Shown: positions 43,832 through 48,954 of the stretch, in pieces
Numbering within the stretch: the stretch's first letter is position 1
Layout: each line of letters begins with the position of its first letter
Source: Escherichia coli
Lineage (GTDB): Bacteria; Pseudomonadota; Gammaproteobacteria; Enterobacterales; Enterobacteriaceae
Strand: one strand, 5' to 3'
DNA: 64,000 nt
Assembly: GCF_048403405.1 (NCBI RefSeq)
Contig: NZ_CP183129.1
Position numbers and translations under genes: made by a program
The notes under the pieces: generated by a model
What the model was told of the DNA's origin: nothing
Database searches by the model: none
What the model saw: the letters and a program-made list of their open reading frames with translations, nothing else

Positions 43832-43950
43832 CGCGTATCCTCCTCTGAAGATATTCTTTAAGTTTACTCGCTTCCCGGCAAAACGATGATTAATTCAGAG
43901 TTATATACCAGGCTTAGCTGGGGTTGCCCCTTAATCTCTGGAGAATAACG

Positions 43951-45693
43951 ATGATAAAACCGACGTTTTTACGCCGGGTAGCCATTGCTGCTCTGCTCTC
44001 AGGAAGTTGTTTTAGCGCCGCCGCCGCGCCTCCTCCGCCACCTGTTTCTTATGGCGTGGAGGAAGATGTCTTCCATCCGGTACGCGCGAAACAGGGGATG
44101 GTGGCGTCTGTAGATGCTACTGCCACTCAGGTGGGCGTGGATATCCTCAAGGAGGGCGGGAATGCCGTTGATGCTGCCGTGGCGGTGGGCTACGCGCTGG
44201 CGGTAACGCATCCGCAGGCGGGGAATCTGGGCGGCGGTGGTTTTATGCTGATCCGCTCGAAAAATGGCAATACCACCGCTATCGATTTCCGCGAAATGGC
44301 ACCCGCCAAAGCGACCCGCGATATGTTCCTTGATGATCAGGGTAACCCGGACAGCAAAAAATCACTCACTTCGCATCTGGCCTCCGGTACGCCAGGTACG
44401 GTCGCAGGTTTCTCGCTGGCGCTGGAGAAGTACGGCACCATGCCGTTAAATAAAGTGGTGCAGCCGGCGTTTAAACTGGCACGCGATGGTTTTATCGTTA
44501 ATGACGCGCTGGCTGACGATCTCAAAACCTACGGTAGCGAAGTGTTGCCGAATCACGAAAACAGCAAGGCTATCTTCTGGAAAGAGGGCGCGCCGCTGAA
44601 AAAGGGCGACAAGCTGGTGCAGGCGAACCTGGCAAAGAGCCTGGAGATGATTGCCGAAAACGGCCCGGACGAATTCTACAAAGGCACGATAGCGGAACAG
44701 ATTGCCCAGGAGATGCAGAAAAACGGTGGCTTGATCACTAAAGAAGATTTAGCGGCGTATAAAGCGGTCGAACGTACACCGATTAGCGGCGATTATCGCG
44801 GGTATCAGGTTTACTCCATGCCACCGCCATCTTCCGGCGGGATCCATATCGTACAAATCCTCAATATTCTGGAAAACTTCGATATGAAGAAATACGGCTT
44901 TGGCAGCGCCGACGCGATGCAAATCATGGCAGAAGCTGAGAAATATGCCTACGCCGACCGCTCGGAATATCTTGGCGACCCGGATTTTGTCAAAGTTCCG
45001 TGGCAGGCGCTGACCAATAAAGCCTATGCCAAATCTATTGCCGATCAAATCGATATCAATAAAGCGAAGCCATCCAGCGAAATTCGCCCCGGCAAGCTTG
45101 CGCCTTATGAGAGTAATCAAACTACCCATTACTCAGTGGTGGATAAAGACGGCAACGCGGTAGCGGTGACCTATACGCTGAACACCACCTTCGGGACGGG
45201 CATTGTCGCGGGCGAGAGCGGTATTCTGCTTAATAACCAGATGGATGATTTCTCCGCCAAACCTGGCGTACCGAACGTTTACGGGCTGGTGGGTGGTGAC
45301 GCCAACGCGGTCGGGCCGAATAAACGCCCGCTGTCGTCGATGTCCCCAACCATTGTGGTGAAAGACGGTAAAACCTGGTTAGTGACTGGTAGCCCAGGCG
45401 GTAGCCGGATCATCACTACCGTGCTGCAAATGGTGGTGAACAGCATCGATTATGGTATGAATGTCGCCGAAGCGACCAATGCACCGCGTTTCCACCATCA
45501 GTGGTTGCCGGACGAGCTGCGTGTCGAGAAAGGATTTAGCCCGGATACGCTCAAGCTGCTGGAAGCAAAAGGTCAGAAAGTGGCGCTGAAAGAGGCGATG
45601 GGCAGTACACAAAGCATTATGGTTGGGCCGGACGGTGAGCTGTACGGTGCATCCGATCCGCGCTCGGTGGATGATTTAACGGCGGGGTATTAA
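43951..45693 (+). CDS. ggt: Gamma-glutamyltranspeptidase
   Basis: Start MIKPTFLRRVAIAALL (signal peptide); 580 aa; matches K-12 GGT. Confidence 0.95.
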   Translation: MIKPTFLRRVAIAALLSGSCFSAAAAPPPPPVSYGVEEDVFHPVRAKQGMVASVDATATQVGVDILKEGGNAVDAAVAVGYALAVTHPQAGNLGGGGFMLIRSKNGNTTAIDFREMAPAKATRDMFLDDQGNPDSKKSLTSHLASGTPGTVAGFSLALEKYGTMPLNKVVQPAFKLARDGFIVNDALADDLKTYGSEVLPNHENSKAIFWKEGAPLKKGDKLVQANLAKSLEMIAENGPDEFYKGTIAEQIAQEMQKNGGLITKEDLAAYKAVERTPISGDYRGYQVYSMPPPSSGGIHIVQILNILENFDMKKYGFGSADAMQIMAEAEKYAYADRSEYLGDPDFVKVPWQALTNKAYAKSIADQIDINKAKPSSEIRPGKLAPYESNQTTHYSVVDKDGNAVAVTYTLNTTFGTGIVAGESGILLNNQMDDFSAKPGVPNVYGLVGGDANAVGPNKRPLSSMSPTIVVKDGKTWLVTGSPGGSRIITTVLQMVVNSIDYGMNVAEATNAPRFHHQWLPDELRVEKGFSPDTLKLLEAKGQKVALKEAMGSTQSIMVGPDGELYGASDPRSVDDLTAGY

Positions 45694-45730: not shown

Positions 45731-46015
45731 TCAGGGCAAGCCGAAGGTAGCCTTTTTTATTTCATAATCCTGTAGATATTCTTCCAGCGGCTTTGCCGTT
45801 CCCAGAGAATGAATTTCACCACTATCTTTATCAATAATAAAAGGTGCGTTACCAGCTAAGCGCGCGGCCTCATCTCCAGATTCAAGAAATTCTTGTGATT
45901 CGAAACAGAAATACCAGCCCTGGCTAAAACGTCCATGCAGAGTGATGACGACAGGGAGATCTGCATCATCAAGGTAATGGTTCGCTTTCGCGAATGCGTC
46001 GTGATAAGTAATCAT
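45731..46015 (-). CDS. yrhB: YrhB (small heat-stable protein)
   Basis: 94-aa ORF; synteny next to ggt. Confidence 0.8.
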   Translation of the reverse strand: MITYHDAFAKANHYLDDADLPVVITLHGRFSQGWYFCFESQEFLESGDEAARLAGNAPFIIDKDSGEIHSLGTAKPLEEYLQDYEIKKATFGLP

Positions 46016-46464
46016 AATTATAATAAATATTATTGTTGATCGTTATATTATTATTCTTGCGTTATACTTTGAGAAAAGACGCGTTCATCTTCGTCAAAGA
46101 TATTATTAAATGCTGGTTTTGAAAAAAGTTCATCGGATAATATACAGTCACGAAATAAGTATCTGCTAATATTTTGTGATTTCTTTTTCAGAACGTCGAA
46201 CGGGATTTTCTTATTTAAGATATCAGAATCTTATGATTCGGGTGAAATTCTAACTAAATCAACATGTCACTAAAATCATCATAGCCATTAGCTATTTCGG
46301 CTAAAATAGAGATTACATGTCTTCGGTCCATCTCACTTAAGGAGTGTAGTTCCGTTGTAAGTTTTTCCATAGCTTGCATTGCTAAGTTTCGAACAAGGAA
46401 TTTTCTGCTGGTAATCTCTAAAAAGATGGCATGGTTTACAATGATTTTTGTTACCTTTTGATTA

Positions 46465-46959
46465 TTATGAACAACTGTCCATGATTTCGTTTAAGAATGA
46501 AGAGAAATCACTAAACGAACTGAATATATTTTCGGTGCCAATATTATCTCTAATTTCAAAAAAGTTACTTTTAATGTCATAAGTAAATATTGAAATGCTA
46601 TCATCCCCGATCACTAACCGTTCTTGTAGATCAGGGTTTATGAAATCATCATTATTTCTATAAAATTCATTTACGGCAAAAAGGTTTTTAACTGAAGGTT
46701 CTGGAATCGAGAGGCTAAATAATCGTAATCCATTAGCTTCGAATCCATCCATTGCTCTTAAAAAAGTAAGATAATCAGGTTGATTCTTAAAAAAAATACT
46801 AACTTCATTACATAACTTCTCCAGGCAATTAGTTGAATTAGAATTAAATTCTATTTGGATTATACTTTCAATAAATGATTCCTTAAGCGGTGCTTCAAAT
46901 GGATAGTCTAAATCATTCATCATTTTTTTTAATTTATTTATTTGGGTCTTAGTCATCAT
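46465..46959 (-). CDS. yrhA: Putative immunity protein for YhhZ nuclease (YrhA-like), apparently intact
   Basis: 164-aa AT-rich ORF whose start overlaps the yhhZ stop by 4 bp (46956-46959); no IS1 sequence seen. Confidence 0.6.
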   Translation of the reverse strand: MMTKTQINKLKKMMNDLDYPFEAPLKESFIESIIQIEFNSNSTNCLEKLCNEVSIFFKNQPDYLTFLRAMDGFEANGLRLFSLSIPEPSVKNLFAVNEFYRNNDDFINPDLQERLVIGDDSISIFTYDIKSNFFEIRDNIGTENIFSSFSDFSSFLNEIMDSCS

Positions 46960-48134
46960 TTTGTGGGTTCCATAATATTTTTCATGGGAGGATAAATTGA
47001 GCCAGATGGAATGGCCCAGTGAGTGATTTTGCTTTCACCTACTAATATTCCCTTAGCTATTCGTGATTGCATGTTAGTAAAAACTTTATGATATGGTTCG
47101 TTTTCGATTAATACTAAATTTTCGAAATCGTTAGCACCACCATCATCTAGAGATAGTTTATGGTGAACATTATAATTTAGAGGAACATTGCCCTTTCTCA
47201 TTCTTAAAAGGTCTTCGGCGTTGAATCTTTCAGATGCTTCGGAGGTTTTTGCAAGTTTGATAAGAAAATTTTTTCTTACAGTTTTATTAAACTCCTTTCG
47301 TAAGTTAGCTAAGTCTTTTGAAGGTCTCTTAATGTATATTATTTCTATTATGTCTATACCATCAAGAAGTTTTTGTTGACCTCTAAGTTTGCCTAAGTAA
47401 CTATTTATTTCTGTATATGTATCAACATTAGAACGCTTTGTTAAAAGAATAGATGCTGTTGCTATCGCTATGCCCGCTGTTTTTTCATTTAGTATTTGAT
47501 CATAGCCTTTTATTGCATCTCCACCCAGTTTTTCCGCAGTATCTCTGAATCCTTCAATGTTCCCATTGTATACGCCACCAGCAGCAAGTAGCCTGCCAAT
47601 AGCTTTGCTGTTTAACGCTTTTAAACCATTATTTGTTTGGTTTTTTGAATTTGGTAAAACCAAACGGTTATAATTTTCAGGGAGTGCCAAATAGCTGAAC
47701 TCGGTATTTGCGATAAGATGTTGACAGAGGATAAATTCATAACTAACAGTTATTGTTTCTGTATCCAGTTGATTTTGAATGATCTGATGATGAATAGCCG
47801 ATAAAAAAGCGCCTCTTAGTTGTATATAATAATACTTTTCCCATCTACCAAATCTATTGATTCTATAAAAGTCAAATTCCATAAATAATTGCTCATTATT
47901 GTTAATGGAATTAATAAGTAATGGAGTGCTTTTATCAATTAATTTACAAAATGTCATACCCTGTAACTGTGAACCAAGTCCCGTATTAGTAATTCTATTT
48001 GCGAGTGAGAATGTAAATATTTCATCCTCATGCCCACTCTGCCAGCGATTACCTATAGATTCAGTAGTCCCACAACCTGCGGAGATGTTTCCTTGTTGTT
48101 CTCCCGTTACTGTCAGGTAAACAATATTACTCAT
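46956..48134 (-). CDS. yhhZ: Hcp-ET type VI effector: N-terminal Hcp domain fused to C-terminal HNH/EndoVII-like nuclease (YhhZ)
   Basis: 392-aa ORF; N-terminus MSNIVYLTVTGEQQGNISAGC... is Hcp-like; C-terminus has NVHHKLSLDDGGANDFENLVLIENEPYHK, an HNH-type motif. Confidence 0.8.
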   Translation of the reverse strand: MSNIVYLTVTGEQQGNISAGCGTTESIGNRWQSGHEDEIFTFSLANRITNTGLGSQLQGMTFCKLIDKSTPLLINSINNNEQLFMEFDFYRINRFGRWEKYYYIQLRGAFLSAIHHQIIQNQLDTETITVSYEFILCQHLIANTEFSYLALPENYNRLVLPNSKNQTNNGLKALNSKAIGRLLAAGGVYNGNIEGFRDTAEKLGGDAIKGYDQILNEKTAGIAIATASILLTKRSNVDTYTEINSYLGKLRGQQKLLDGIDIIEIIYIKRPSKDLANLRKEFNKTVRKNFLIKLAKTSEASERFNAEDLLRMRKGNVPLNYNVHHKLSLDDGGANDFENLVLIENEPYHKVFTNMQSRIAKGILVGESKITHWAIPSGSIYPPMKNIMEPTK

Positions 48135-48369
48135 CCATGAAAAGTCCTTTTATGGCATGCTATTTTATCAATGGAACTATTATGCTTGTTAATTGTTATT
48201 TATTTACTCCAGGAAATTGTAGGCGTATATATTAAAAAATAAAATATTACACTTTAGGACGTAATCATGAGGTAAATCTTATATATTTATTGGGAAAATA
48301 AATACATTAAAGGAAGGTATGCCGATTTTGAATGACACCCTTTTTCCATCTCAGAAAAAGGGCACTATC

Positions 48370-48858
48370 TTACTTCACCCGCGCCATATAATACGCATCG
48401 ACATATTCACCATTACGTAATGCGTACTTCTTGCCAGTCCCTTCAATCTCAAATCCAAATTTTTTATAGACCTTAATTGCTGGCGCGTTATCGATGAACA
48501 CCGTTAGCTCAATACGATCTACCCGCAACCAGTTGTCGCACATTTCAATCATCTCTCGCATCAGGGCGCTGGCGACGCCGCGATTCTTCCAACGGGAGTC
48601 GACACAAATACCAAAATCTGCAACATGACTGCGGCGTGGGCGCTGTTGCACGTCAATGGTGAGATGGCCCACGACGTCTCCATCAATACAGGCGACGAGT
48701 TGCTTGATGCCGGGGCGATCGGCGAGTCGCTCCTGCCACATATGATCGGAGGGATGAGGCACCTGTAGCGTGTTGCAATACACCTCCGGCTGGGCGTGAA
48801 TCTGCCTGATGGCCTCGTAATCCCGTGTTTCTGCGTGGCGTATCACTATCTCACTCAT
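48370..48858 (-). CDS. yhhY: GNAT N-acetyltransferase YhhY
   Basis: Likely start MSEIVIRHAETRDYEAI (162 aa); GNAT motifs. Confidence 0.85.
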   Translation of the reverse strand: MSEIVIRHAETRDYEAIRQIHAQPEVYCNTLQVPHPSDHMWQERLADRPGIKQLVACIDGDVVGHLTIDVQQRPRRSHVADFGICVDSRWKNRGVASALMREMIEMCDNWLRVDRIELTVFIDNAPAIKVYKKFGFEIEGTGKKYALRNGEYVDAYYMARVK

Positions 48859-48954
48859 TCCTTTGTCCTCTTTGGGGTAAATGTCCCTTTCAACATCATT
48901 GACTTTCAAATGCGAGTCAAATGCATTTTTTTGCAAAAAGTGTTGGACAAGTGC

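Follow-up and report, generated by a model that had tools for sequence, protein, structure and literature searches.

The question raised by this locus is whether the 449 bp that separate yrhB from yrhA in the Escherichia coli chromosome form a plain non-coding spacer or contain the remains of genes. The gap was analysed within a stretch of 64,000 nucleotides, referred to below as the window. It most probably represents the degraded 3' tail of a polymorphic-toxin island situated between yhhY and yrhB/ggt, made up of a yrhD remnant and the stump of an immunity gene. The gap and its surroundings are arranged as follows.

43924-45693, plus strand: ggt
45731-46015, minus strand: yrhB, 94 aa, matching Pfam Imm35 (E 1.2e-22), the downstream neighbour of the gap
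46016-46464: the yrhB-yrhA gap, 449 bp, the promoter-distal tail of the AT-rich yhhZ island
46465-46959, minus strand: yrhA, intact, 164 aa, YrhA/YPO0640 family, the upstream neighbour of the gap
46956-48134, minus strand: yhhZ (annotated tssD), 392 aa, an Hcp domain carrying an HNH-type toxin at its C-terminus
48370-48936, minus strand: yhhY
46032-48371: the AT-rich island yhhZ-yrhA-yrhD-stump, approximate extent by comparison with an E. coli strain without it

A preliminary description of this region gave the borders of the gap exactly, with the ATG of yrhB at 46015 and the stop codon of yrhA starting at 46465. Both genes are on the minus strand, so they do not form the convergent pair described there, and the promoter proposed for such a pair rests on the wrong gene orientation. 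The location of the K-12 IS1 in the gap was only approximate, as the junction lies within yrhA at about 46578, which is 114 bp away from the gap. The AT-richness itself is real, with 31.0% GC against 51.4% across the 64-kb window, but it is not specific to the gap: the block 46016-48369, comprising yhhZ, yrhA and the gap, has 32.0% GC overall. Since low GC is common to this whole block, the gap is the tail of an AT-rich island and no compositional oddity in itself. The statement that the gap is non-coding with only short broken frames is true only in part, because yrhD and a 59-codon stop-free stretch with clear protein homology are found there. Frame length as such is not unusual, the longest open run being 69 codons against a mean of 58.5 +/- 14.8 in simulated AT-rich sequence.

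With the covariance models of Rfam 15, no RNA family was matched in the gap. A sub-threshold match to snoR69Y, a eukaryotic snoRNA, at 46569-46665 on the minus strand within yrhA (28.7 against a gathering score of 45 bits) is almost certainly an AT-rich artefact. yrhA is presumed to be the immunity gene of YhhZ. The HNH domain of YhhZ is under the Pfam threshold (PF01844, E 0.0055, 17.3 bits against a cut-off of 21.4 bits), and its assignment as a nuclease comes from a literature grouping (PMC5714182) without a curated Pfam match.

The yrhA-side half of the gap contains yrhD, which in K-12 is an ORF of 51 codons encoding 51 aa. In the window it is shortened.

46254-46379, minus strand: truncated yrhD, 41 codons from the ATG at 46379, or 38 from the K-12 start at 46370

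The premature TAG lies at 46256-46254, where the codon of K-12 is TAT (Tyr39); the full K-12-equivalent gene would occupy 46370-46215 on the minus strand. The upstream ATG at 46379 is specific to the window. Of the first 38 residues, 36 are identical between the window and K-12 YrhD. Strain ST2747 has the same sequence (100% identity), and its yrhD is marked by PGAP as a pseudogene ('incomplete; missing C-terminus'). Another haplotype (L006, 94% identical) has ATA instead of the yrhD ATG, an internal TAA and several radical replacements. A megablast search of 5,426 complete E. coli genomes with 45900-46600 detected the region in 4,052, chromosomal every time and annotated as yrhA, yrhD and yrhB; the other 1,374 genomes gave no match to the gap region. 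Haplotypes were counted with allele-specific 45-mers, in which differing central bases leave no megablast seed possible. By this count, the TAG haplotype of the window exists in 509 of the 5,426 genomes, the K-12 haplotype around codon 39 in 2818 and the L006 haplotype in 454, including the type strain ATCC 11775 and Nissle 1917.

Between haplotypes, nearly all substitutions in yrhD are non-synonymous, with a dN/dS of about 2 or with dS = 0, and yrhB, yrhA and yhhZ have values of 0.10-0.37; these ratios are based on 4-13 differences per segment and are noisy and indicative only. No homologue of YrhD beyond E. coli was found among 1.84 billion representative proteins, and no family of Pfam, NCBIfam or PHROGs was matched. 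At the DNA level, the yrhD segment has no relatives in related loci, in the plasmid collection or in the rest of the window. When the sequence is read directly, no recognisable Shine-Dalgarno element precedes the yrhD ATG. Because yrhD is evolving without purifying selection, it is most likely no functional protein gene, and it can be concluded with moderate confidence that it is not maintained as one.

The opposite explanation, that yrhD encodes a true small protein which works in most E. coli and that the window only carries a loss-of-function allele in a normal two-gene interval, is unlikely. It draws on the 2818 genomes with the K-12-type 45-mer at codon 39, on the NCBI annotation as 'protein YrhD', on an RpoD binding peak upstream, and on the RNA of the yrhD segment (46216-46464, minus strand), which at -49.4 kcal/mol folds somewhat better than shuffled sequences (z -2.34; 2/200). 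It has to be set against two independent kinds of disruption, carried by about 509 and 454 genomes, together with the excess of non-synonymous substitutions, the missing Shine-Dalgarno element and the confinement to E. coli without any family match. As the K-12-type codon-39 sequence is kept in about three quarters of the E. coli genomes having the region, a role as a small protein or RNA is possible.

Several other observations concern this segment. A long-range helix in its RNA joins the first 35 nt or so past the yrhA stop to the premature-stop region. In some genomes, as seen in a 246-aa protein from an E. coli assembly (P0009), a frameshift at the yrhA stop joins yrhA to the frame entering yrhD; this frame is open from inside the 3' end of yrhA (about 46470 in the window) through yrhD. 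Two candidate relatives were rejected. A decayed yrhA paralogue was suggested by a 21-aa likeness to Lelliottia YrhA, for which Smith-Waterman shuffling gave p values of 0.06-0.48. A tblastn match to a Yersinia plasmid 'HEPN' protein (E 1-5) is spurious, because it lies on the strand opposite to that gene.

The other half of the gap, next to yrhB, contains the stump of a gene.

46054-46215, minus strand: immunity-type pseudogene stump, corresponding to the first two thirds of a protein family of 85 aa (profile positions 2-51 of 86)
46048-46053, minus strand: TAATAA double stop ending the stump, where intact relatives go on for about 32 codons

Only about 32 nt separate this double stop from the ATG of yrhB. 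A profile of the family, built from 28 members with E. coli sequences left out, was searched against all six-frame fragments of the window (107,476 aa), and the single match was 46230-46054 on the minus strand (40.2 bits, E 3.5e-11). In direct comparison, residues 2-54 of an 85-aa ORF of Citrobacter youngae align to the stump with 45% identity over 53 aa without gaps (BLASTP E 2e-14), and tblastn and nhmmer agree with this homology. In the nhmmer comparison, the 3' end of yrhA and the stump align separately to the C. youngae locus, with about 250 nt of the E. coli-specific yrhD segment between them.

The stump is absent from the list of ORFs because the stretch has no ATG, GTG or TTG start, and no annotated feature covers it in the records examined. 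When the stitched yrhD and stump product was put through a word-indexed search and through a full HMMER scan of 1.84 billion representatives, only E. coli fragments were recovered; with a match of 50 aa at 45% identity, the Citrobacter family falls short of E <= 0.001 in a library of this size. The family was reached by fetching syntenic loci through relatives of YrhA, with one genome per species. Neither the stump, the stitched product nor the 28 intact relatives match any Pfam or NCBIfam family, including Imm35, SUKH/SMI1-KNR4, Imm-NTF2-2 and the YrhA family.

The suggestion of decayed orphan immunity genes is therefore borne out in part by this homology. It holds for the stump at 46215-46054 on the minus strand, and it does not extend to the yrhD half, which is tied to no immunity or toxin family. 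Known polymorphic-toxin immunity families, a comparison with which had been proposed as a check, give no Pfam or NCBIfam match in any frame of the gap. The preliminary description had also stated that its suggestion would fall if the region were conserved and non-coding in all strains and had no protein-level similarity in any frame; such similarity does exist, because the stump matches the Citrobacter/Budvicia family.

That the gap is purely regulatory, serving yrhB and/or yrhD as promoter or leader and containing no remnants of genes, and that the Citrobacter likeness is due to chance or composition, is very improbable in view of this match. Transcription signals have been reported in this region. 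In K-12, genomic SELEX with the RpoD holoenzyme gave a peak upstream of yrhD, marked H-NS, with the hexamers TAGAGA-18-TATATT (Shimada et al. 2014, PMC3946193), which are located in the window as follows.

46523-46552, minus strand: sigma-70-like TAGAGA-18-TATATT, inside the 3' end of yrhA

An RpoS-holoenzyme binding peak in the yrhD>yrhB spacer of K-12 was obtained in vitro by the same group (PMC5493296), and H-NS-binding 'promoter islands' were reported within yhhZ and yrhA (PMC3661553). A weaker form of the promoter idea can draw on these in vitro RNA polymerase peaks upstream of yrhD and between yrhD and yrhB in K-12 (PMC3946193, PMC5493296). Promoter-like hexamers are also present at 46075-46047 and 46039-46011 on the minus strand, and the AT-rich DNA and the statistically ordinary length of its open frames would suit a regulatory tract. 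Promoter-like sites, however, are not enriched in the region (9 against 12.7 +/- 3.6 in shuffles), and neither the sole profile match in the whole six-frame translation nor a gap-free 53-aa alignment at the syntenic position after yrhA is accounted for. A regulatory role may coexist with a gene remnant but does not replace it, and as an exclusive reading it is refuted. No terminator was found in the gap. At yrhB itself (46011-46030, minus strand), no Shine-Dalgarno element is seen and a perfect TATAAT lies 1 nt upstream of the ATG (…TTATTATAATTATG).

Judged from its sequence, the stump is a pseudogene remnant and no working member of the family. The frame is free of stops from 46230 to 46054 on the minus strand (59 codons), and at the site of the start codon, 46215-46213, AAT is present in place of the family ATG. 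The last 32 or so codons are missing, including the most conserved block of the family, RxRMN...G.G..EY.GLER; the absent residues are R64, R66, M67, N68 and, further on, E77, Y78, G80, L81, E82 and R83. Genomes of the K-12 type have an additional in-frame TAA in the stump at site 46176. Across haplotypes, the dN/dS of the stump is 0.16-0.76. That it still gives an immunity peptide of about 55 aa, through a non-ATG start or read-through, and acts against JAMM-type toxins of neighbours is extremely improbable, since a frame open for 59 codons in both the window and haplotype L006 and a dN/dS of 0.16 between the window and K-12 (few differences, noisy) are opposed by the lack of any ATG, GTG or TTG start, by the TAA of K-12-type genomes and by the loss of the most conserved third.

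As a gene remnant, the stump points to a family that is intact elsewhere. Its members are proteins of 85-101 aa in C. freundii, C. koseri, C. portucalensis, C. rodentium, Budvicia aquatica and metagenomes; the family is conserved over its full length in 28 sequences, none of which has a Pfam domain. The family profile found nothing among PDB sequences, PHROGs gave nothing meaningful for four small proteins, and the structure model of the 85-aa protein is poor (pLDDT 55).

The neighbourhood of the intact genes is more informative. Profiles of both families, the small protein and the toxin domain preceding it, were searched over all fetched loci. The toxin domain occurs independently seven times there: in C. 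rodentium, in Budvicia, on three contigs of metagenomic or assembly origin, in a fragment from Salmonella and in a distant Rhs locus. In all seven, a member of the 85-aa family follows directly, at 0-5 nt or overlapping, whether the toxin domain is Hcp-fused, Rhs-fused or orphan. The C-terminal 155 aa or so of the C. rodentium toxin share 61% identity with the C-terminal end of an orphan Rhs fragment from Budvicia aquatica, past the 'DPLGL' boundary, and this fragment is followed by a family member at 1-nt spacing. Movement of a toxin domain between carriers in company with one and the same small gene downstream is what characterises a cognate toxin-immunity cassette (PMC3482391). The gene position thus suggests that the 85-aa family comprises the immunity proteins of this toxin domain. 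In an Rhs locus of B. aquatica (L010, 3846-4211 and 6988-7353), two further family copies of 121 aa were observed (139 bits each), which together with the copy after the orphan Rhs toxin form a repeated immunity-gene array.

The toxin domain is about 155 aa long and has a complete JAMM motif, E60...H100-x-H102-x7-S110-x2-D113 in C. rodentium numbering. Each motif residue is at least 90% conserved in 56 toxin-domain sequences, with the consensus SHTHP...S..GD. The model of the domain is confident and its predicted fold is similar to those of solved JAMM structures. None of the 56 members matches a JAB-type Pfam model at E <= 1, and a sequence search of the PDB with the domain gave no match. Polymorphic toxin systems include JAB-fold toxins, namely Tox-JAB-1 and Tox-JAB-2, which have been proposed as possible nucleases rather than peptidases (PMC3482391).

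Because the intact members always adjoin a JAMM-motif toxin domain, the stump would be a dead orphan immunity gene left by a swap of toxin modules. The earlier attribution of the remnant to the YhhZ (HNH) module is not supported, as the intact relatives are paired with this different domain. The JAMM toxin and immunity cassette was not detected in any of the 5,426 complete E. coli genomes (blastn with 11-base words). With no cognate toxin detectable in E. coli, nothing is left for the stump to neutralise.

Comparison of the same chromosomal site among species indicates how this situation may have come about. In C. youngae, the order is yhhZ-yrhA-ORF85-ORF87-ggt, with ORF85 intact and located 20 nt past the yrhA homologue. 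In C. rodentium, the site holds yhhX, yhhY, a 402-aa Hcp fusion, a family gene of 101 aa that starts 1 nt past the fusion stop, and ggt; the fusion matches residues 1-229 of YhhZ at 67% identity and has no relationship to it beyond that point. In E. coli, it holds the Hcp-HNH gene, yrhA, the yrhD segment, the immunity stump and yrhB. The stump is therefore placed at the yhhY-ggt site, in the same order after yrhA as in C. youngae, and C. rodentium uses the same site. The 87-aa ORF of C. youngae (L008, 4783-5046), between the orphan immunity gene and ggt, has the position of E. coli yrhB; it gives only weak winged-helix-like matches (EarA, Lrs14; E > 0.03) and may be another orphan immunity gene.

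The island also varies within E. coli. In strain GYX208DH4E-2 (L004, 4120-4228), the island is absent and about 105 bp of unrelated sequence lie between yrhB and yhhY; homology to the window breaks off near yrhB, at about 46031, and begins again with the yhhY stop, at about 48372. This break places the truncated 3' end of the stump about 20 nt from the island boundary. The whole yhhZ-yrhA-yrhD-stump block is seen as a presence/absence polymorphism, and yrhB is also found in strains without the AT-rich island. Strains that have the island and strains that lack it are wholly different in sequence upstream of about 46031, so the upstream signals used by yrhB must differ between the two backgrounds. 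The remnant DNA may contribute to yrhB transcription now. In strain ET745 (L005, 4832-5750), the island was removed by an IS1-associated deletion reaching from yrhB into yhhY: an IS1 lies between yrhB, which is truncated at its 5' end, and yhhY, which is shortened.

From the sites of three species, an order of events can be proposed. The ancestral locus would have carried an Hcp-JAMM toxin with its immunity gene, the latter at the standard position right after the JAMM toxin domain. Recombination may then have brought in the HNH head and yrhA, by which the older immunity gene would have become an orphan. In E. coli, this orphan would subsequently have decayed, with the start codon gone and the last third missing. 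At present, the role of this DNA may be at most that of a transcribed spacer and promoter region for yrhB. Lelliottia nimipressuralis (L009, 2800-3954) has an intact yrhA-like gene at another chromosomal site, preceded by a toxin gene that is broken into two ORFs (237 and 142 aa) and whose N-terminal part looks unlike Hcp; here a toxin may be decaying while its immunity gene is kept.

A more far-reaching proposal is that the stump is the fossil of an undescribed pair of JAMM toxin and 85-aa immunity protein, and that the whole gap, including yrhD and 'VRISPE*', is what is left of an Hcp-JAMM cassette displaced by HNH/yrhA. This is put forward tentatively, as a conceivable history rather than the expected one. 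The trace to which it refers is the following.

46237-46254, minus strand: 'VRISPE' followed by Ser and a stop, a weak 6-residue trace eight codons upstream of the stump

This trace is similar to 'VMISPEWKP*', the conserved end of the toxin ahead of intact immunity genes, and the context of the yrhD stop, TCTTAAAT, resembles the junction of toxin stop and immunity start in the cassettes, CCTTAAAATG; both would suit a relic of a toxin 3' end and are too short to serve as evidence. With four cassettes as queries, nhmmer gave no match upstream of the stump. When yrhD was examined as the possible 3' end of a JAMM-type toxin gene, a profile of 64 toxin-domain sequences gave only negative scores in three frames of three haplotypes. 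If the fossil-pair reading is true, the yhhZ locus represents a datable replacement of a toxin head on an Hcp scaffold.

These findings bear on annotation and on the evolution of this site. Although left unannotated in the records examined, the yrhD-yrhB interval can be recognised as the remnant of a gene, and yrhD behaves as decaying sequence rather than as a conserved small-protein gene. The yhhY-ggt site appears as an Hcp-toxin 'slot' common to Escherichia and Citrobacter, in which the scaffold is kept and the heads and immunity genes are exchanged. The JAMM toxin domain and its partner family escape the current domain libraries and represent a candidate type VI/Rhs effector-immunity pair. 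The value of the stump lies in annotation and in a clean example that records a past swap of toxin heads.

Compared with the K-12 gene, yrhD of the window has the same locus and sequence and is cut at codon 39 by the change of TAT to TAG. The toxin partner can be compared with Tox-JAB-2 (partly DUF4329) and its immunity protein Imm-NTF2-2 (Zhang et al. 2012). A JAB-fold toxin, proteobacterial hosts and delivery by T6SS or Rhs are shared, and the Tox-JAB-2 motif E, H[ST]H, S, D can be set beside the consensus SHTHP...S..GD of the present domain. In contrast to Tox-JAB-2, 0 of 56 members match a JAB-type Pfam model at E <= 1 and the partner lacks an Imm-NTF2-2 match; membership of the domain in Tox-JAB-1 or Tox-JAB-2 is not established. 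Among Hcp-fused effectors, YhhZ is an Hcp-HNH protein, and C. rodentium shares its Hcp part (67%) and swaps the head, with the immunity gene directly after; the C. rodentium head, by JAMM motif and fold, is outside the five clans listed in a review.

The closest parallel is found in the orphan and degenerate immunity genes that follow Rhs, CDI and Hcp-fused toxins (Zhang et al. 2012, Biol Direct, PMC3482391). The place is the same, a small gene after the toxin C-terminal domain, and as in those systems one cassette is found on different scaffolds, here Hcp and Rhs. Orphan copies lie downstream of the active pair and decay once the cognate toxin is gone. The present families differ in that they match no Pfam model, Imm and Tox models included, and in that the E. 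coli copy is a stump of 54 codons. The stump is thus a new, unannotated example of a well-known phenomenon, ordinary genome decay, and will be no surprise to specialists of polymorphic toxins.
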